DNA of 64,000 bases, taken from positions 6,079 to 70,078 of the forward strand of contig CAJOPC010000004.1 in the NCBI GenBank assembly GCA_905236245.1, given 5' to 3'. This document shows, one piece after another, positions 349 through 48,737 of this stretch. The DNA is from an uncultured Alphaproteobacteria bacterium (GTDB lineage: Bacteria > Pseudomonadota > Alphaproteobacteria > CAAHEQ01 > UBA3637). A model generated the notes under the pieces. That model was given only the letters and a program-made list of their open reading frames with translations, searched no databases and had not been told where the DNA came from. The number at the start of each line of letters is the position of its first letter. Within the stretch, counting starts at the first letter, position 1. The position numbers and the translations under genes are program-made.

Positions 349-1224
349 TTATTGACATAATGCAAAACTGCCATAGCAGTGGTTTGTAGGAGATATATTT
401 CCACCATAAAACCCTATCGTGGGCGCATCCATGTTAGCACCTGCATTTATAAACCAAAAACCATTAATGTATCCAAAAGCCTGCATTAATTCATCTAGAA
501 CCGTGCTATATCTTACTTTATTCGCGTTAGTATACCAATTACGATCCCACTCACATGTTTGGCCACTAGCACAACATCCCCCAGAGTAATACCCATTTAC
601 TACAAGTGAATCTGAATTACTTTCATAACATTCAAATTTGCTGATATCTAACAAATTCATACCATGAGCCTTACACCAATTATCCGCTGCCCACCATGTT
701 ATCTCTTGCGTGTTTCTCCTTACTAAACCAAGAGTATTTGTTATCTCATCCTCATATTCATCAGCACTCATACAAACTCCTTTATCTGGTCTATCAGGCA
801 ATATCACCGGCGGAGGGCCATCAATGATACGTGCATCCAAATGACAAAAACACTTCTCATATCCATTTTCAACACACCAATCATTACAATCTCTATTACT
901 TATACAATTACCATCTAAATGTGTTTCTGTCCCACAAGGATCTTGTTCATACGATAAATACACATTTCCATTGGCACACACTGTACAAGATCCATCTGAA
1001 TTATGCTCTAAACCAGCTTCACATTTGGCAATACATGTATCATTCCAAACGTCCTCGTCATCTGTGCACACGACTTTGCTTCCCTCACCTCCAATATGCA
1101 AACTAATAGCATCAACACCTGTTCCACGATAAATAGAAGATTTTCGGCTCTTACCACCACCGCCAAAAGCCAACACACTTGTTGCCACCAAAATCGCTGT
1201 TCCAAATAATAAAATCTTTTCCAT
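349..1224 (-). CDS. Secreted cysteine-rich protein, family member P1 (conserved leader plus C-type-lectin-like C-terminal domain)
   Basis: The internal Met MEKILLFGTAILVATSVLAFGGGGKSRKSSIYRGTGVD matches the leader of four other paralogs. The module CTVCANGNVYLSYEQDPCGTET and the motif WWAADNWCKAHGMNLLDIS are shared with P2 and P3. The ATG lies at 1222-1224 (rev). Confidence 0.75.
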   Translation of the reverse strand: MEKILLFGTAILVATSVLAFGGGGKSRKSSIYRGTGVDAISLHIGGEGSKVVCTDDEDVWNDTCIAKCEAGLEHNSDGSCTVCANGNVYLSYEQDPCGTETHLDGNCISNRDCNDWCVENGYEKCFCHLDARIIDGPPPVILPDRPDKGVCMSADEYEDEITNTLGLVRRNTQEITWWAADNWCKAHGMNLLDISKFECYESNSDSLVVNGYYSGGCCASGQTCEWDRNWYTNANKVRYSTVLDELMQAFGYINGFWFINAGANMDAPTIGFYGGNISPTNHCYGSFALCQ

Positions 1225-38349: not shown

Positions 38350-39189
38350 TTACCTACACAATGGTGTAATAAATGGTCCATTTGATTTAGGACGAGAAAA
38401 ATTACCCACATCACTGTTATTAGCCGACACATTAAACATTGCACAGGAATTATCAGCTGAGTAATTAGAGCTGGTCCAAAAACTAACTGGTCCAAAATTT
38501 TGCCTCAGAGCAATAATCACAGCACTATAATGAGAATATACGAAATCTTCATGCTCTGGCAAAATAGTTTTATTCTCACATTGATAACAATTTTCCCAAT
38601 AATTATACCAAGGCCCTGCACTTTGACCAGATACACAACAAGAAGAGTATATACCGGAACCACCAGTAACTAGTGTTGAAGTATCACTCTGATAACAATT
38701 AAACTCGGCCACATCTATTAAAGATTTACCCTGTGCTTTGCACCAATTATCCGCAGACCACCAACTCATCCGTTCATATTTGTTAATGACTTCCCCTAAT
38801 CCTTCTATATTAACAGGGCCAAGCACATCTCCGATAGCGGTACAGGTTCCTGTATTTGGTTGTTCACAATTTGATCCATCCAAATTACAGTATTCGCCCT
38901 CATTACAATCCTCATTACTCTTACAACCATCAAAAATTGTTTCCGTACCACATGGATCTTCTTTGTATGACAAATACACATTACCATTGGCACAAACCGT
39001 ACATTTTCCAAATCTATCCTCTAACACGCCAGCGGCACAAGCGCCACCTTTTCCATTGATACGCACATCAACAGAGTCCACTCCTACTCCGCGATATACG
39101 GAGCTCTTACGACTTTTCCCGCCACCACCAAAGGCCAAAACACTTGTTGCCATTAAAAGTGCTGTTCCAAATAATAATATTTTATTCAT
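38350..39189 (-). CDS. Secreted cysteine-rich protein, family member P2 (conserved leader plus CTLD-like C-terminal domain)
   Basis: MNKILLFGTALLMATSVLAFGGGGKSRKSSVYRGVGVDS leader. The first ~105 aa match P3 at all but one position, after which the sequences diverge. WWSADNWCKAQGKSLIDVAEF motif. AAGGAG RBS. Confidence 0.8.
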   Translation of the reverse strand: MNKILLFGTALLMATSVLAFGGGGKSRKSSVYRGVGVDSVDVRINGKGGACAAGVLEDRFGKCTVCANGNVYLSYKEDPCGTETIFDGCKSNEDCNEGEYCNLDGSNCEQPNTGTCTAIGDVLGPVNIEGLGEVINKYERMSWWSADNWCKAQGKSLIDVAEFNCYQSDTSTLVTGGSGIYSSCCVSGQSAGPWYNYWENCYQCENKTILPEHEDFVYSHYSAVIIALRQNFGPVSFWTSSNYSADNSCAMFNVSANNSDVGNFSRPKSNGPFITPLCR

Positions 39190-39236
39190 AAAAACTCCTT
39201 TTTTAAAAATAAAACTCGCCCTGATAACTTAAAGTC

Positions 39237-39265
39237 ATTATATGTCATCCATTTTTAAATAGCAA
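39237..39265 (-). promoter_or_regulatory. Consensus sigma70 promoter of P2 (TTGCTA-17 bp-TATAAT on minus strand)
   Basis: On the minus strand, TTGCTA (39265-39260) and TATAAT (39242-39237). The identical module is found upstream of P3. Confidence 0.6.
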
Positions 39266-39296
39266 CAAAAAAGCCCGAGATAATCTCGGGCTTTTC
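39266..39296 (-). terminator. Rho-independent terminator of P3
   Basis: GCCCGAG-ataatc-CTCGGGC hairpin flanked by A and T runs. Confidence 0.7.
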
Positions 39297-39311: not shown

Positions 39312-40034
39312 TTACTTACACAATGCAGGAGCATTCATGCCTTGTCCACCCTGTCGGCCATCTCTTGGGCCAATATATTTATCAAAAGTGCGCACATAAA
39401 CACTCTTACAGATATCTATACCATCATTTACCCAAAACCAATTATAACTTATCTTATCCAAAACTGGTTGCCAATCTAAATGACATCCAGAACTTTCTTG
39501 ACACGTTTCACCATTGATAATGACACCACTAACACTGGAAGGATCAATACCAATATCTTCTAAGCCAATCAACTGTTTTCCCCTAGCAGCACACCAATTT
39601 TCAGCAGCCCAATAGGAAAAAGAATCTTGGCTAATTATACAACCATCATCAAAAGTTGTTTTAATATCATTCTCATTTAATGGAGAACACACGCCTGTAT
39701 CTGGCTGTTCACAATTACTACCTGTCAAATTGCAATATTCATTTTCTCCACATTGTACATTACTTACACAACCTGTTACACTTGTTTCCGTACCACATGG
39801 ATCTTCTTCGTATGACAAATACACATTACCATTGGCACAAACCGTACATTTTCCAAATCTATCCTCTAACACACCAGCAGCACAAGCACCACCTTTTCCA
39901 TTAATATGCACATCAACAGAGTCCACTCCTACTCCGCGATATACGGAGCTCTTACGACTTTTCCCACCTCCACCAAAGGCCAAAACACTTGTTGCCATTA
40001 AAAGCGCTGTTCCAAATAATAATACTTTGTTCAT
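39312..40034 (-). CDS. Secreted cysteine-rich protein, family member P3 (tandem paralog of P2)
   Basis: Leader and first ~105 aa match P2 at all but one position (K/V at the fourth residue). Divergent C-terminus still containing YWAAENWCAARGKQLIGL. Confidence 0.8.
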   Translation of the reverse strand: MNKVLLFGTALLMATSVLAFGGGGKSRKSSVYRGVGVDSVDVHINGKGGACAAGVLEDRFGKCTVCANGNVYLSYEEDPCGTETSVTGCVSNVQCGENEYCNLTGSNCEQPDTGVCSPLNENDIKTTFDDGCIISQDSFSYWAAENWCAARGKQLIGLEDIGIDPSSVSGVIINGETCQESSGCHLDWQPVLDKISYNWFWVNDGIDICKSVYVRTFDKYIGPRDGRQGGQGMNAPALCK

Positions 40035-40070
40035 AAAAGCTCCTTTTTTAAAAATAAAACTCGCCTTGAT

Positions 40071-40231
40071 GAGAGGCGGTTGGAAGCTCGAAAACTATCA
40101 GATAGAATAGTGCGACATATTTCGGTGTTAACACCTTTATTTTGTCACCTTCCAACCACGTGATTGGAATTTTTCGTCCTTGGACGCTATCTGAAAGGCT
40201 TTCGAGACCTTAGATCGGGAATCACCCAATC
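40071..40231 (-). other. About 160-bp structured MITE-like insert in the P3 5'UTR (absent from the otherwise identical P2 leader)
   Basis: Flanked by sequence shared with the P2 leader. It contains a perfect 12-bp palindrome GGTGTTAACACC, a near-palindrome TTCCAACCACGTGATTGGAA, and outer inverted arms CTCGAAA...CAGATAG / CTATCTG...TTTCGAG. Confidence 0.55.
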
Positions 40232-40315: not shown

Positions 40316-43300
40316 TTATTTTTCTTCCCCGGCCAGTTGTTTGTAGTATGCCCAACGGTCATCCACTTGCTTTTGAGCCTGTTTCAACAATTCCTCATAG
40401 TGTTCCGGATCTTGTTGTTTCACATACTTAAAGCGTGTTTCTGTGGCCATAAAATCGGCGACAGGAATGCTTGGCTTACTATCTAACTGGAATGGATTTT
40501 TACCTTCCGCTTTCAGGCGCGGATCAAAACGATACAATGGCCACAAGCCGGATTTCACCGCCAATTGTTGATGGTTCAATCCTTCCTTACCGATATCATA
40601 CCCATGGTTGATACAGTGGCTGTAAGCAATGATCAAGCTTGGTCCATTAAAGGATTCGGCTTCGTTCATGGCTTTCAAAGCTTGAGCATCATTAGCACCC
40701 AAGGAAATGCTTGCCACATAAACTTCGCCCGAACTCATGGCAATGGCGCCCAAGTCTTTGCGTGGCAAGCTGCTGCCCGACACGGCAAACTTAGCGGACG
40801 CACCAATCGGTGTTGCTTTAGAACGTTGTCCACCAGTGTTGGAATAAACCTCGGTATCCATGACCATAATGTTCACATTCTTGCCAGAGTACAAAGCGTG
40901 ATCTAAACCACCATAGCCGATATCATAGGCCCAACCGTCACCGCCCAAAATCCACACGGATTTTTTAACGAGATAGTCGGCATGTTCGCTCATCAATTTC
41001 ACACGATCACCAGACAAGGTTGCCAATTTTTCTTTCAACGCTTTCACACGATCACGTTGAGCGGCAATACCTTCCTCTGTTGTTTGATCGGCATTTAAAA
41101 TACTGTCAGCCAATTCGGCACCAACTTGGTCTTTCAATTCGCCCAATAACTGAATTGCAAATTCAATTTTGGAATCAACCGAAGTACGCATACCTAAACC
41201 AAACTCAGCATTGTCTTCAAACAAACTGTTTGCCCAAGCGGGGCCTCTGCCTTCTTCATTTTGTGCATACGGTGTTGTCGGTAAGTTACCGCCATAGATG
41301 GAGGAACAACCTGTTGCATTGGCCACCAACAAACGATCACCAAAGAGCTGCGTCATCATCTTGACATACGGCGTTTCGCCACACCCAGCGCAAGCGCCAG
41401 AGAATTCAAACAATGGACGCATGAGTGCTACACTCTTCACCGCTTTTGGATTCAACTTGCTGCGATCCGCATCTGGCAATTGCATAAAGAAGTCAAAGTT
41501 CTTGATTTCTTGATCAATATGCTTTTCAATTGGCTCCATAACAAGCGTGTTTTTCGCTTTCATTGGGCAAACCTGCGTACACAAAGAACACCCTGTGCAA
41601 TCTTCTGGAGCTACCTGAACAATAAACTTGTTACCGGCAAAATCAGGTGTCTTATAATCCGAGGACTTAAAGCCCTCCGGCGCATTTGCCAATGTTTCTG
41701 GTTTAGCCACTTTTGCACGAATAGCGGCATGTGGACACACAGACACACATTTACCGCATTGGATACATGTTTCTGGATCCCAGCAAGGAATCTCCGTTGC
41801 CACACGGCGTTTTTCATAGCGAGCGGTATCGCTTGGCCACGTCCCATCCACAGTCCATTCAAACGCGGAGACAGGTAATTCATTTCCTTTTTCTTCAATG
41901 ATTTTACCCGTCACATTACGAATCAACTCTGGCGCAGTCGTTGGTACACCCGGTTGACGATGAATCTTGGAGTTTGCTTCTCCGATCTTCACTTCATACA
42001 AATGCTCCAAACTGGCATCCACGGCCTTGATGTTAGCATCCACCACTTCTTGACCTTTTTTCATATAGGTTTTTGTAATGGCTGCTTTAATCTTTTCAAT
42101 TGCCACATCCTTTGGCAACACGCCGGAAATAGCAAAGAAACAAGCCTGCATGATTGTGTTGATTCTGCGACCCATGCCTGTCTTACCGGCCACATCCACC
42201 GCATCAATGGCATACATTTTAATCTTCTTATCAATGATCTCTTGTTGCACCTCAATCGGTAAACTGTCCCATACTTGATCGGCAGGGGTTTGTGTATTCA
42301 ACAAGAACACAGAATTTGGTGCAGCCACCGCCAACAAATCAATCTTATGCAAGAATGGTTCATGGTGACAAGCCACAAAGTCAGCGGATGTAATCAAATA
42401 CGGCGCCTTAATCGGGCTCTTACCAAAGCGCAAGTGAGATGTTGTCATCGCACCCGACTTTTTGGAATCATACACAAAGTATGCTTGCCCATACATATCA
42501 TCGGCATCTGCAATAATTTTGATAGAGTTCTTATTTGCACCAACAGTACCATCAGAACCCAAACCAAAGAAGATACAACGACTGAGGTCTTGGGCTGGTA
42601 AATTCCAAGTGGCATCATAATCCAAAGATCCATTTGTCACATCATCATTGATACCAACGGTGAAGTGATTCTTTTCCACGTTTTCAAACACAGCTTTTGC
42701 CATAGCGGGCGTGAATTCTTTGGAGGAAATTCCATAACGGCCACCCAACACTTTTGGCATAGCGCGGCCATTGACAGCCCCTTCGGCCAAAGCGGATACA
42801 ACATCCAAGTACAAAGGTTCACCAACGGAACCAGCTTCTTTTGTTCTGTCTAATACTGTCACATATTTCACGGATTCAGGCAAAGCCGCCACAAATGCTT
42901 TGGATGGGAACGGACGATACAAATGTACCGCCACAACACCATATTTACCACCATTGGCATTCAAGGCTTTTACTGTTTCAGATAATGTTTCTACACCGGA
43001 ACCCATAGCAACCACAACATGTTCAGCATCTTTGGCGCCAACATAATCCACAATATGATAAGCACGGCCAGTGACTTCTTCAAACTTGCGCATACATTTT
43101 TCAACGATTTCTGGGCAAGCCTGATAATACTTGTTTGCAGCTTCTTTAATTTGGAAGAATACATCCGGATTCTGAGCTGTACCACGAACCTTTGGATGAT
43201 CCGGCGTCAAAGCGTTCTTACCTGTAAAGTCTGTTGGAATATCCGCCATCAAAGCCTTCAAATCATCATCACTCATCATATTGATTTTGTTGATTTCGTG

Positions 43301-43828
43301 GGATGTGCGGAATCCATCAAAGAAATGCAAGAACGGAATGCGTGACAAATATGTGGACATTTGCGCCACCGCGGCCAAATCATGTGCTTCCTGAACCGAG
43401 TTGGAAGCCAACATTGCAAATCCCGTTTGACGGCAAGCCATCACATCCGAGTGATCACCAAAAATGGACAAAGCATGTCCTGCAACAGTACGAGCCGCCA
43501 CATGCATCACAAATGGCAACAATTCGCCAGCAATCTTGTACATATTCGGAATCATCAACAACAAACCTTGGCTGGCGGTATAAGTTGTGGTCATAGATCC
43601 AGCTTGCAAAGCCCCATGCACGGCACCGATAGCTCCAGCTTCAGATTGCATTTCCAAAACTTGCGGCACTTTGCCCCAAATGTTTTGTTGTTTACCGGCC
43701 GCCCAAGCGTCCGCCCATTCGCCCATTGGAGAAGATGGCGTAATCGGATAAATAATGGAAAGTTCGTTCAATTTATATGCCACTGTAGCAGCGGCTTCGT
43801 TTGCATCAAGCATTTTTGTTTTAGACAT
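40316..43828 (-). CDS. nifJ: Pyruvate:ferredoxin (flavodoxin) oxidoreductase, single-polypeptide PFOR
   Basis: About 1170 aa. Two 4Fe-4S ferredoxin motifs (CIQCGKCVSVCP, CTGCSLCTQVCP). TPP-binding GDGW motif. The start is set at MSKTKMLD (43826-43828 rev). Confidence 0.92.
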   Translation of the reverse strand: MSKTKMLDANEAAATVAYKLNELSIIYPITPSSPMGEWADAWAAGKQQNIWGKVPQVLEMQSEAGAIGAVHGALQAGSMTTTYTASQGLLLMIPNMYKIAGELLPFVMHVAARTVAGHALSIFGDHSDVMACRQTGFAMLASNSVQEAHDLAAVAQMSTYLSRIPFLHFFDGFRTSHEINKINMMSDDDLKALMADIPTDFTGKNALTPDHPKVRGTAQNPDVFFQIKEAANKYYQACPEIVEKCMRKFEEVTGRAYHIVDYVGAKDAEHVVVAMGSGVETLSETVKALNANGGKYGVVAVHLYRPFPSKAFVAALPESVKYVTVLDRTKEAGSVGEPLYLDVVSALAEGAVNGRAMPKVLGGRYGISSKEFTPAMAKAVFENVEKNHFTVGINDDVTNGSLDYDATWNLPAQDLSRCIFFGLGSDGTVGANKNSIKIIADADDMYGQAYFVYDSKKSGAMTTSHLRFGKSPIKAPYLITSADFVACHHEPFLHKIDLLAVAAPNSVFLLNTQTPADQVWDSLPIEVQQEIIDKKIKMYAIDAVDVAGKTGMGRRINTIMQACFFAISGVLPKDVAIEKIKAAITKTYMKKGQEVVDANIKAVDASLEHLYEVKIGEANSKIHRQPGVPTTAPELIRNVTGKIIEEKGNELPVSAFEWTVDGTWPSDTARYEKRRVATEIPCWDPETCIQCGKCVSVCPHAAIRAKVAKPETLANAPEGFKSSDYKTPDFAGNKFIVQVAPEDCTGCSLCTQVCPMKAKNTLVMEPIEKHIDQEIKNFDFFMQLPDADRSKLNPKAVKSVALMRPLFEFSGACAGCGETPYVKMMTQLFGDRLLVANATGCSSIYGGNLPTTPYAQNEEGRGPAWANSLFEDNAEFGLGMRTSVDSKIEFAIQLLGELKDQVGAELADSILNADQTTEEGIAAQRDRVKALKEKLATLSGDRVKLMSEHADYLVKKSVWILGGDGWAYDIGYGGLDHALYSGKNVNIMVMDTEVYSNTGGQRSKATPIGASAKFAVSGSSLPRKDLGAIAMSSGEVYVASISLGANDAQALKAMNEAESFNGPSLIIAYSHCINHGYDIGKEGLNHQQLAVKSGLWPLYRFDPRLKAEGKNPFQLDSKPSIPVADFMATETRFKYVKQQDPEHYEELLKQAQKQVDDRWAYYKQLAGEEK

Positions 43829-43894
43829 GTTTTTCCTTTCAAAAATTGATGGCAATTTTATACAACTTTTTTTCATAAATTGCAAGCATAAAAT

Positions 43895-43928
43895 CTTAAA
43901 AAAATCCCCATCTTTTTGACGGGGATTT
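43895..43928 (-). terminator. Terminator of P4
   Basis: ATCCCCgtcaaaaagatGGGGAT hairpin plus T-run on the minus strand. Confidence 0.6.
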
Positions 43929-43998
43929 GAACAAAACATTTTTCCTATATTCTCGTTTGATAATTCACAACAATTTCACCTACACAAAAATATAAAAA

Positions 43999-44715
43999 TC
44001 ATTGATTACATGTGTCAGGAGACCAACTACCCCCAGGGGTCACTTCACCAGCACAACATCCCCAAGACCAACTTCCACCATCACACTCCGGCCCATGTCG
44101 AGATAAACAATATGGGGTTGTATCTTTTGGACAACAAATATAGCCTATACACACATTGTTTTCATCGTACTTGTAACAAACGGGTTCAGTTCCCGGAGTG
44201 GTACAACATAAATCTGATCCATCTAGCCCTTTACCTTCAAATACTTCACCATTACAACATGTATAATTATCTCCATATGAAAAACGACCACTCAAATAAG
44301 GCTTTCCTCCACTGGGGCAACACAAAGACCAGTTATAAACACAATTTCCATCAGCATCACGAGTAAAACAAAAAAGGGTGCCGGTGCAACACATTGAAGC
44401 CCACGACCCTACTTGGCGAGAAGCCGATTCTCCTGCTGGGCAACAAAAATTCAATTCTTCATTACAACACTGGTATTCGCCTGATTCGTTCTGACTACAT
44501 ACATTATCACCATAACAACAACCTTTACCGCACTTAACACCATCTGAGCACGTCTCCTCTGAATCACTATCTTTTCCACTAAAATGCACACCGATAGAAT
44601 CAACGCCTACGCCACGATAAACGGAAGATTTGCGACTCTTTCCTCCTCCGCCGCCAAAGGCTAAAACAGAGGTTGCTACCAAAATTGCCATTCCAAATAA
44701 TAATACCTTTTTCAT
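43999..44715 (-). CDS. Secreted cysteine-rich protein, family member P4 (conserved leader plus tandem CC-x-G repeat C-terminal domain)
   Basis: MKKVLLFGMAILVATSVLAFGGGGGKSRKSSVYRGVGVDSIGVHF leader. The C-terminus contains many CC pairs (CCYGDN, CCNEE, CCPAGE, CCTGT, CCPSGG, CCNGE, CCTTPG, CCPKD, CCAGE). AGGAG RBS. It lies 18 nt downstream of the preceding gene. Confidence 0.8.
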   Translation of the reverse strand: MKKVLLFGMAILVATSVLAFGGGGGKSRKSSVYRGVGVDSIGVHFSGKDSDSEETCSDGVKCGKGCCYGDNVCSQNESGEYQCCNEELNFCCPAGESASRQVGSWASMCCTGTLFCFTRDADGNCVYNWSLCCPSGGKPYLSGRFSYGDNYTCCNGEVFEGKGLDGSDLCCTTPGTEPVCYKYDENNVCIGYICCPKDTTPYCLSRHGPECDGGSWSWGCCAGEVTPGGSWSPDTCNQ

Positions 44716-44733: not shown

Positions 44734-45156
44734 TTAATGGTGATGATGATGGTGCCTGATTGTCCGCAAATAATCCTGTCTTTCACGATACGAATCTTGA
44801 TAAGTGGATTCATCACGTTCCATTTCGGCATGCTCTTGAATACATGTCCATAACGCCTCTTTTGAAATAGCGCTATCTTTAAAGTAATTCTCACAAGTCG
44901 TGTTTAACTTATCAATTTTTTGCTCAATTCTATCTGCCAATTCTTTGCTAACGGAACCTGACATATGATACAAACGCCTAAATAATTTTTCATAAAACAA
45001 ATGGCACTTCATATTCTGTTCTGAACCAGGCTGAAAACCCAACACTTCTTCACATTGACGATTCAAAGCTTCTTGATAACGTGCCTCACCAATTCGATCA
45101 GAGTCTGCCATCGGGTTAAGTAACAAAGAAGTTAATAAAATACTTCCCCAAAACAC
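44734..45156 (-). CDS. Small secreted protein with a natural C-terminal hexahistidine tail (putative metal-binding), co-transcribed with P4
   Basis: GTG start with an AAGGAGG RBS. Hydrophobic N-terminus. Ends ...TIRHHHHHH-stop. The likely promoter TTGCAT-17-TATTAT is upstream. Confidence 0.6.
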   Translation of the reverse strand: MFWGSILLTSLLLNPMADSDRIGEARYQEALNRQCEEVLGFQPGSEQNMKCHLFYEKLFRRLYHMSGSVSKELADRIEQKIDKLNTTCENYFKDSAISKEALWTCIQEHAEMERDESTYQDSYRERQDYLRTIRHHHHHH

Positions 45157-47822: not shown

Positions 47823-48737
47823 TTACAGGACACACGTATCGGGTTCATTTTTTGATCCTGGGGTAACTGTTCCAGGACAACATCTCCAAGAGGCACCACC
47901 ACAACATCCCTCATATCGGGAGACACAATAAGGCGTTTCTCCTTCACTACAACATGCTGCTTGATAATAGTAATTTTGTTGAATAAAAAACGATGTTACA
48001 CAATCTGCCTTGCCACATGCATATCCATATCCTCTACATTTTTCTCCGTTGGTTTCATATTCTGCACAATATCCTTTTTCTCCCTCTGCACAACAAATAT
48101 GTACAGTACAATTACCTGCATCATCATACTCCGCACAAACTGGTTTTTTCCCATCATAACAGCACAAATCAGCCCCATCCACGCCTTTCTCTTTATAAAC
48201 TTTTCCTCCATTAGAACAACACATATATTGATCTCCATAAGAAAATTTACCATTTATATAAGGCTCTCCATCACAACATAAATACTCTTTAGTACCATCA
48301 TCACGTTCATAAGGGCCATATACTTTCCCTCCAGTTGGGCAACAAGAAGTAGACGTACAATTATCTTCTGCATCTTTATAACTGCAAAACAATTTCCCAG
48401 CACAGCAAGTCGTCTCCCAATATCCTCTGAAGATACGATATGCTCCACCACTTATTGGGCAACAATGATTTAATTCTTCACTGCAGCACTGATACTCGCC
48501 AGACTCATTCTGCTTGCACACATTATCACCATAACAACAACCGCTGCCACATTTGATACCATCAGAACAGGTCTCTTTTCCTGAATCGTCATCTTTTCCA
48601 TTAAAATGTACACCGATAGAATCAATACCTGTGCCGCGGTAGACAGATGCCTTTCGACTTTTTCCGCCCCCACCACCAAAGGCAAAAACCGATGTTGCCA
48701 CCAAAATTGCCGTTCCGAATAATAAAACTTTTTTCAT
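47823..48737 (-). CDS. Secreted cysteine-rich protein, family member P5 (conserved leader plus CC-x-G repeat domain, P4-like)
   Basis: MKKVLLFGTAILVATSVFAFGGGGGKSRKASVYRGTGIDSIGVHFNGKDDDSGKETCSDGIKCGSGCCYGDNVC parallels P4. The C-terminus is longer and repeat-rich. Confidence 0.8.
   Translation of the reverse strand: MKKVLLFGTAILVATSVFAFGGGGGKSRKASVYRGTGIDSIGVHFNGKDDDSGKETCSDGIKCGSGCCYGDNVCKQNESGEYQCCSEELNHCCPISGGAYRIFRGYWETTCCAGKLFCSYKDAEDNCTSTSCCPTGGKVYGPYERDDGTKEYLCCDGEPYINGKFSYGDQYMCCSNGGKVYKEKGVDGADLCCYDGKKPVCAEYDDAGNCTVHICCAEGEKGYCAEYETNGEKCRGYGYACGKADCVTSFFIQQNYYYQAACCSEGETPYCVSRYEGCCGGASWRCCPGTVTPGSKNEPDTCVL

Follow-up and report, generated by a model that had tools for sequence, protein, structure and literature searches.

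In this study, we followed five paralogous genes, P1 to P5, whose first ~130 nt form a common 5' handle, through a 64,000-nt stretch of DNA (the window, to which all positions refer) and through their homologs in sequence databases. We consider it quite probable that the handle is a portable coding module, in which the DNA similarity of dispersed copies arises from selection on the protein, gene conversion is a local event and part of the encoded peptide serves as a tag for sorting or anchoring. The similarity between dispersed copies is a side effect of strong purifying selection on the handle peptide, with synonymous sites being saturated, and the handle is a conserved secretion leader and tag which, although undescribed, is familiar in concept. 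In the proposed mechanism, the module would encode a Sec-type signal peptide of ~19 residues followed by a mature N-terminal peptide of ~25 residues. It heads a large repertoire of otherwise unrelated Cys-rich, adhesin-like proteins that belong to uncultured Alphaproteobacteria of gut and rumen. Over the first ~20 codons, a general bias towards A-ending codons may further raise the similarity of the handles at DNA level, and the retained flexible tag would carry binding domains of various kinds to the cell surface or into the surroundings.

Five genes and the N-terminal module they encode

All five paralogs are complete genes on the minus strand, each with a full ORF, an ATG and an SD, and a six-frame motif scan found no sixth handle copy in the window. 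P1 (349..1224) encodes a predicted secreted protein of 291 aa with handle, Cys-rich modules and a C-terminal C-type-lectin-like domain (CTLD). P2 (38350..39189, handle 39055-39189) encodes a 279-aa paralog with a CTLD-type body and stands in tandem with P3 (39312..40034, handle 39900-40034; 240 aa), each of the two having its own promoter-like site. P4 (43999..44715, handle 44578-44715; 238 aa) carries a CC-rich all-beta body and P5 (47823..48737, handle 48600-48737; 304 aa) a CC-rich body. P1 lies 38 kb away from P2, in good agreement with the ~37 kb given originally for its distance to the other copies. The N-termini of P1-P5 follow the pattern M-[KEN]-K-[IV]-LLFGTAILVATSVLAFGGGG(G)KSRKSSVYRG-x-GVDSIGVH-[IF] and diverge thereafter, P2 of the window having an Arg at codon 43, where the motif has a near-invariant His. 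Beyond the handle, the rest of P1-P3 consists of Cys-rich modules and a C-terminal TWWAADNWCKAQG... domain, that of P4-P5 of the CC-rich body.

By inspection, residues 1-19 are composed of M-[KEN]-K, LLFGTAILVATSV and L-A↓F, with V or S at -3 and A at -1, and are read as a predicted Sec (type I) signal peptide. In P1, this putative signal peptide occupies codons 1-19 (1168..1224, minus strand) with MEK, a hydrophobic core and SVLA, and is followed in codons 20-45 (1090..1167, minus strand) by the conserved mature N-terminal tag FGGGGKSRKSSIYRGTGVDAISLHIG, recognised by alignment, profile search and low pLDDT. In a distant homolog, P0024, L-A-F is replaced by a lipobox-like F-S-C, which supports cleavage between Ala and Phe. 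With this cleavage site, FGGGG...GVDxIGVH would be retained after export. The mature tag of ~25 residues consists of Phe-Gly-Gly-Gly-Gly, a short basic/Ser linker, Tyr-Arg-Gly and the strand-like segment G-V-D-[SA]-I-G-V-H; in 26 divergent sequences, AFGG never varies, nor does the first Gly of G-V-D, and V, D and H are nearly invariant.

When 1.84 billion cluster representatives were searched with a profile built from the handle, 218 proteins matched at E <= 1e-3, 108 of them at E <= 1e-10, and the match was N-terminal in all 150 listed of the 218, usually from residue 1. The matched proteins are 69-2951 aa long, and their median Cys content is 8.4%. P1 itself has 40 database homologs, none with a Pfam domain, and the handle N-terminus is present in 38/40. 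In hmmscan searches of P1-P5 against Pfam-A and NCBIfam we obtained no meaningful match and no model for the handle. A 54-aa handle query gave no match in a word-indexed protein database, from which the full-length query recovered the exact proteins. A narrow handle alignment led to 56 pattern matches in GTDB genomes, 0 of which were upheld by tblastn, and the variability of a broad alignment was too high for back-translation.

The handle profile also matches BLIP-II in the PDB with a whole-sequence E-value of 8e-4, summed over several repeats, and both have the motif A[WF]GG-x(10-13)-GVDAI in common. The tag could on this basis be derived from, or mimic, an RCC1/BLIP-II beta-propeller blade fragment (V-x-A-W-G-G ... 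S-G-V-D-A-I) and act by strand complementation with a partner propeller. We regard this as extremely improbable, since the best match to any single repeat has an E-value of 3.3, the predicted signal peptide, which would be removed, overlaps with the 'A-F-G-G' half, the register of the conserved His does not agree and a Pfam RCC1 match is absent.

In AlphaFold2 models, P1 residues 1-46 and almost all of P4 residues 1-52 show pLDDT < 50, while the two unrelated bodies are modelled at pLDDT about 90. The tag is therefore predicted to be flexible and to lie outside the cargo fold. It should be noted that the low values in the handle could partly stem from shallow alignments of 13-22 sequences.

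With first 19 residues resembling a standard Sec signal and no partner or dedicated machinery found beside any copy, the handle might be nothing but an ordinary signal peptide plus linker, conserved through young paralogs and having no specific post-export role. We find this unlikely, because the bodies have diverged beyond alignment, yet the tag is ~80% identical with dN/dS ~0.1, and because the module is found again in 218 clusters whose cargo is unrelated. Moreover, conservation peaks after the predicted cleavage site, in the invariant or nearly invariant AFGG and G-V-D..H residues, where an ordinary signal peptide needs none.

Several other classes of leader were considered and rejected. 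A lipoprotein (type II) leader does not fit P1-P5, which are devoid of Cys in the first 48 residues, and a type IV pilin or class III leader does not fit the window proteins, in which the hydrophobic core precedes the Gly run and Glu at +5 is missing. YSIRK, KxYKxGKxW, ESPR and Tat leaders were set aside because no Pfam or NCBIfam model matches the N-terminus of P1-P5. For a double-glycine (C39/PCAT) leader, the GG comes after a classical hydrophobic h-region, the cargo reaches 2951 aa and no ABC exporter lies beside the window copies or recurs at other loci. Reading GVDSIGVHF as a TonB box or as a chaperone-usher donor strand would rest on a resemblance, and the accepting pilin domain is absent.

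DNA similarity and synonymous divergence of dispersed copies

The first 44-46 codons of P1-P5 can be aligned with a one-codon Gly indel as the sole gap. Over the first 132 nt, nucleotide identity amounts to 73-81% in every dispersed pair and to 95% in P2/P3, while the 100 nt upstream of the ATG, with the exception of P2/P3, are at background level (26-33%). Considering the unrelated upstream DNA, the similarity is real and far above chance, and it starts at the start codon. The original observation of a highly similar stretch of ~130 nt in all five genes is thus confirmed as to the existence of the similarity in P1-P5, but its level is ~75% and not near-identity. A 44-mer quoted for all five genes is found in P1, P2 and P3 with <=3 mismatches, but is absent from P4 and P5. 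The longest exact match between dispersed copies is 12-18 nt. Efficient RecA-dependent exchange in E. coli usually requires roughly 20-30 nt of identity, and the shorter matches observed here count against a recombination handle for the dispersed copies.

Synonymous divergence was calculated by the Nei-Gojobori method and extended to 7 paralogs in total by adding two from the same samples, P0002 (beside rplQ) and P0037 (beside uppS). Handle dS is 0.86-1.56 for the dispersed pairs of P1-P5 and 0.6-2.5 across the 7 paralogs, P2/P3 excepted, compared to 1.2-2.7 in the bodies. For the same set of pairs, handle dN is 0.05-0.20, so that dN/dS is ~0.1. P2/P3, with a handle dS of 0.15-0.18, is unlike every dispersed pair. 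The handle had been claimed to be conserved beyond what constraint at protein level requires, with equal divergence of synonymous sites in leader and bodies named as the observation that would indicate purifying selection on the protein. This is what we observe in all dispersed pairs, and the claim does not hold for them.

Codon choice was assessed by a same-codon test, in which identical codons are compared with Monte-Carlo expectations from the codon usage of the window (5000 simulations). In the mature handle (codons 21-44), 42/110 codons were identical at an expectation of 40.8 (P = 0.44), i.e. no excess, while in the signal peptide (codons 1-20) 58/93 were identical at an expectation of 34.6, a value reached in 0/5000 simulations. 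One serine of the handle is encoded by AGT in P1-P3, by TCT in P4 and by TCG in P5, and this switching between codon families indicates that selection acts on the amino acid, not through DNA copying. The same-codon fraction of the signal peptide is 0.60 within the genome and 0.61 against homologs from L025, L026 and L027, which apparently belong to another species, as judged from their different samples and flanking genes and not from a shared housekeeping gene. The excess, being equal across samples, does not stem from intragenomic homogenisation. A-ending codons account for 0.45 of the signal-peptide codons, 0.36 of the first 20 codons of other genes and 0.29 of codons elsewhere. At the 5' end of genes, and particularly in signal peptides, the choice of codons and the structure of the mRNA are established targets of selection. 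The same-codon excess means that some constraint at nucleotide level exists in the signal peptide, and we tentatively attribute it to 5' codon or mRNA selection.

These data bear directly on the alternative that ongoing gene conversion keeps the handle DNA alike in the five dispersed genes and provides homology for the exchange of cassettes, promoters or leaders. The same-codon excess in the signal peptide and the modular nature of the family, with cargo shuffled after a constant N-terminus, would be in line with such conversion, as would the homogenised tandem pairs described below. However, all dispersed pairs are saturated at synonymous sites, the excess neither extends into the mature handle nor differs between the genome and other samples, exact matches are short in the midst of unrelated upstream DNA, and every copy is complete with its own SD, P2 and P3 also with their own promoter-like sites. 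Ongoing conversion among the five genes is hence very improbable, and for the dispersed copies largely refuted.

Probable gene conversion between adjacent copies

The tandem pair P2/P3 behaves differently from all dispersed pairs. Its homogenised 5' block extends in P2 from -40 to +253 (38937..39229, minus strand), covering the 5'UTR with SD, the handle and the first Cys module, and the P3 copy (39782..40074, minus strand) is ~96% identical to it, with 63 nt as the longest identical stretch. Between P2 and P3, dS is 0.15 in codons 1-84, rises to 1.96 in codons 85-125 and is 1.10 further downstream; the mismatch counts across this breakpoint differ with P = 7e-44 in Fisher's exact test. Upstream of P2, a terminator hairpin is combined with a promoter-like TTGCTA-17-TATAAT (39231..39295, minus strand; repeat family D7, 86% identity). 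A second terminator and promoter-like block, assigned to the D7 repeat by scan and alignment, lies upstream of P3 (40233..40297, minus strand), where ~157 extra nt separate it from the UTR.

Strain variation was followed for P2-P5 in three short-read metagenome assemblies, the window included. The two other strain assemblies are colinear with positions 28350-49189 at 99.93-99.95% identity, with gene order and sizes kept, and in a second assembly P1 and its flank are identical over 4.2 kb. In L023, the handle genes contain five SNPs, all between CDS +128 and +162 and all at sites that distinguish P2 from P3. Four of them (CDS +128, +132, +147 and +162) mark a putative gene-conversion tract in P2 (39028..39062, minus strand), where all switch to the P3 base, including R43H, which brings back the near-invariant His of the motif. 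P3 of the same strain carries a reciprocal SNP to the P2 base at position 39879 (+156). This pattern, in sequences which are all short-read metagenome assemblies, is the signature of inter-paralog gene conversion. It would mean that DNA-level exchange takes place in the handle family.

Since all three sequences are metagenome assemblies, we also considered that the apparent conversion between P2 and P3 in the strain is an artefact of assembly or polishing over the 289-nt, 96%-identical repeat, left by a partial tandem duplication. The confinement of the five SNPs to 35 nt inside the repeat would agree with this, as would the one reciprocal change, which is expected from mis-phasing. Nevertheless, an artefact seems rather unlikely to us, as the longest P2/P3 identity of 63 nt is shorter than the k = 141 implied by one 'k141' contig name, the step in dS at codon 85, from 0.15 to >1, is present in every single assembly and similar mosaics occur in independent tandem pairs of two other MAGs.

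The first of these MAGs, JAZRDB01 (L003), contains tandem handle genes encoding 915 and 300 aa with unrelated bodies, which are 97-98% identical from -65 to about +108 and fall to background similarity past about +136. In the tandem pair of L027, the handles are merely ~70% identical and a tract of ~110 nt at 98% identity lies just downstream. Such a tract outside the handle indicates that conversion takes place wherever neighbours share homology and is not handle-specific, and it speaks against conversion as the agent that keeps the handles alike. Within the limits of these assemblies, conversion or unequal recombination is found only between physically adjacent copies, in tracts that include the handle but are not limited to it.

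Recombination, as originally suggested for all five genes, thus applies to the adjacent P2 and P3, where both the mosaic and the strain SNPs support it, but not to the dispersed P1, P4 and P5. The three strain assemblies, in which the 20.8 kb with P2-P5 are colinear, speak against the proposed cassette exchange or leader swapping among dispersed copies.

Cargo, related systems and a proposed role for the retained tag

The cargo of P1-P3 has a CTLD fold, for which Pfam Lectin_C gives no match in these proteins. In the AlphaFold2 model, hairpins stack into the all-beta body of P4, for which we found no PDB neighbour, and among 16 longer handle proteins Pfam detected only one F5/8 type C domain and one sub-threshold Dumpy match. 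The bodies of P1-P3 and P4-P5 had been called unrelated, and within the window they are indeed unalignable. However, four homologs (P0008, P0026, P0028 and P0035) join a P4/5-type CC-rich module and a P1-type lectin domain in one protein, and the two groups are therefore to be seen as module shuffles within one superfamily. Compared to the C-terminal domain of the Bdellovibrio fibre protein Bd2740 (PDB 8oks) and to the CTLDs of invasin, intimin and Legionella Lcl, sequence identity is 8-17%, and the N-terminal architecture of the handle proteins differs from that of all four.

Relatives in reference genomes all belong to uncultured Alphaproteobacteria MAGs, whose names indicate human (Hadza) gut, yak rumen and UBA bins. 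Several sister MAGs encode the same cargo behind an N-terminus of type IV pilin-like character, ...GRSMVEMLGVLAIIGVLSVGGIAGY, with G-R-S-M-V-E, then a hydrophobic helix, and with GRSMVEMLGVLAIIGVL present; pilin models gave only sub-threshold scores on these proteins. Both kinds of N-terminus, tag and pilin-like, are found in UBA3650. The handle genes stand singly amid core housekeeping genes, and we found no conserved neighbour across their loci. Pfam gave no match for the unknown ORFs flanking P4 and P2, and secretion genes are missing from their vicinity.

Modular type IV pilins with adhesin or lectin modules are described for Streptococcus sanguinis PilB and PilC (PMC8179133, PMC9934059). 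The sister-MAG proteins resemble them in grafting a Cys-rich, C-type-lectin-like adhesin module onto a pilin-like delivery module. The window proteins differ from them, their hydrophobic core lying before the Gly run and not after a G↓x site, with no Glu at +5.

Conserved signal-peptide modules are found in YSIRK-G/S and KxYKxGKxW of Gram-positive surface proteins and in ESPR of autotransporters, and are thought to route proteins during or after Sec export. The handle likewise constitutes an N-terminal leader that is conserved at protein level and common to paralogous surface or secreted proteins with unrelated passengers. In contrast to these modules, it is without a Pfam or NCBIfam match, its host lineage is one of uncultured Alphaproteobacteria, and its strongest conservation (FGG..., GVDxIGVH) follows the predicted cleavage site and would thus be part of the mature protein. 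In this respect, the curli subunit CsgA is closer, in which N22, a Gly-rich unstructured mature segment of 22 residues after the Sec signal, directs CsgG-dependent secretion, also of heterologous cargo. The handle shares with it the combination of a Sec signal with a Gly-rich, flexible and cargo-independent peptide, which AlphaFold2 leaves unstructured on two unrelated cargoes. The likeness is one of layout: Pfam and NCBIfam returned no family for the handle proteins, no CsgG/E/F genes lie beside any handle copy, and the handle cargoes are large and disulfide-rich, reaching 2951 aa, which makes passage through a channel for unfolded substrates unlikely.

Surface variation by gene-conversion cassettes is known from Neisseria pilE/pilS, Borrelia vlsE and Treponema tprK. 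The handle family has in common with these systems its surface-type character, constant and variable parts and conversion tracts between neighbours. Unlike them, it contains no silent promoterless partial cassettes, all five copies being complete genes; its dispersed handles are synonymously saturated and without long identical runs, and the handle loci are stable across three strains.

Taken together, we lean slightly towards the view that the retained tag is a signal by which proteins are sorted or anchored after Sec export and so displayed at the surface or outside the cell. This is suggested by the tag's cargo independence and its conservation past the predicted cleavage site, as well as by the adhesin-like nature of the cargo and the substitution of a pilin-type delivery module in related genomes. 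A further-reaching and tentative reading, which we consider possible but hold with clearly less conviction, is that AFGG...GVDxIGVH is the recognition signal of an undescribed post-Sec export or anchoring route of these gut and rumen bacteria that displays many fast-evolving disulfide-rich lectin-like adhesins, is functionally interchangeable with a pilin N-terminus and is aided in the attachment of cargo by local conversion of the 5' block.

For the analysis of similar families, the example demonstrates that ~75% DNA identity over 130 nt can mimic homogenisation, although ~80% amino-acid identity and a 5' codon preference account for the similarity. The portable, unannotated tag marks >200 clusters of Cys-rich, lectin-like secreted proteins in a gut and rumen alphaproteobacterial lineage, with no cultured representative among the handle matches. 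It thereby makes it possible to catalogue the surface proteins and adhesins of these bacteria by sequence, and offers a bait peptide for the partner in export or anchoring, while the mosaics of tandem copies illustrate how new combinations of cargo originate.

Strain differences across P2 to P5

Two further strain assemblies, L023 and L024, were compared with the window across the 20.8 kb spanning P2 to P5, genes for cysteine-rich secreted proteins. Within the minus-strand pyruvate:ferredoxin oxidoreductase gene (40316-43939) we observed 10 SNPs confined to 46 nt (41345-41390), nine of which, by our own count, fall on third codon positions. The identical set of differences from the window is found in both other assemblies, while the remainder of the 20.8 kb is nearly identical between the window and both of them. 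Judging from the sequence comparison, this segment looks like a short recombination tract derived from a diverged allele.

Codon 43 of P2 (window 39062) encodes Arg (CGT) in the window and in L024, at the near-invariant His position of the GVDxIGVH motif, which belongs to the handle, the shared N-terminal module of about 45 residues. Strain L023 carries His (CAT) at this codon, apparently regained through conversion from P3, the tandem neighbour of P2.

Neighbouring reading frames and dispersed repeats

Directly upstream of P4, a minus-strand ORF of 140 aa and unknown function (44734-45156) terminates in a natural HHHHHH tail and gave no Pfam match. On the plus strand, long antisense ORFs of 164 aa (38738-39232) and 126 aa (39730-40110) lie opposite P2 and P3, respectively, and have sequence in common because both overlap the 5' block duplicated between these two genes. 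Both ORFs probably just shadow the real genes and do not represent genes of their own.

The two repeat families D6 and D8 consist of short direct repeats in dispersed positions (82-86% identity). Neither is related to the handle genes, and one of them contains the hairpin-like ACCGTCCAATTTGGGACGGT. Direct-repeat pairs are located at 9425-9495/10328-10398 and 10245-10300/11686-11741.

Handle copies and related protein modules

Additional handle genes, each single, were observed at the ends of core operons in L029 (6001-6819) and L031/L032, all from the same samples as the window's contig, positioned after rplQ and beside uppS/frr; they apparently belong to the same species as the window. Database matches that agree in contig count and source suggest at least about 13 handle-gene copies in the genome.

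The handle profile A2 gave a weak match to beta-lactamase inhibitor protein II (PDB 1jtd_B; E-value 8e-4 for the whole sequence, 3.3 for the best single repeat) in its RCC1-like repeats, which carry the motif A-W-G-G ... S-G-V-D-A-I; this likeness is probably convergent.

In six Alphaproteobacteria MAGs (L004, L008, L010, L014, L016 and L019), Cys-rich and C-type-lectin-like cargo of the type found behind the handle is headed by a type IV pilin-like N-terminus (GRSMVEMLGVLAIIGVL...). Pilin HMMs gave only sub-threshold scores on these proteins, which, from their sequence, would be candidate modular pilins.
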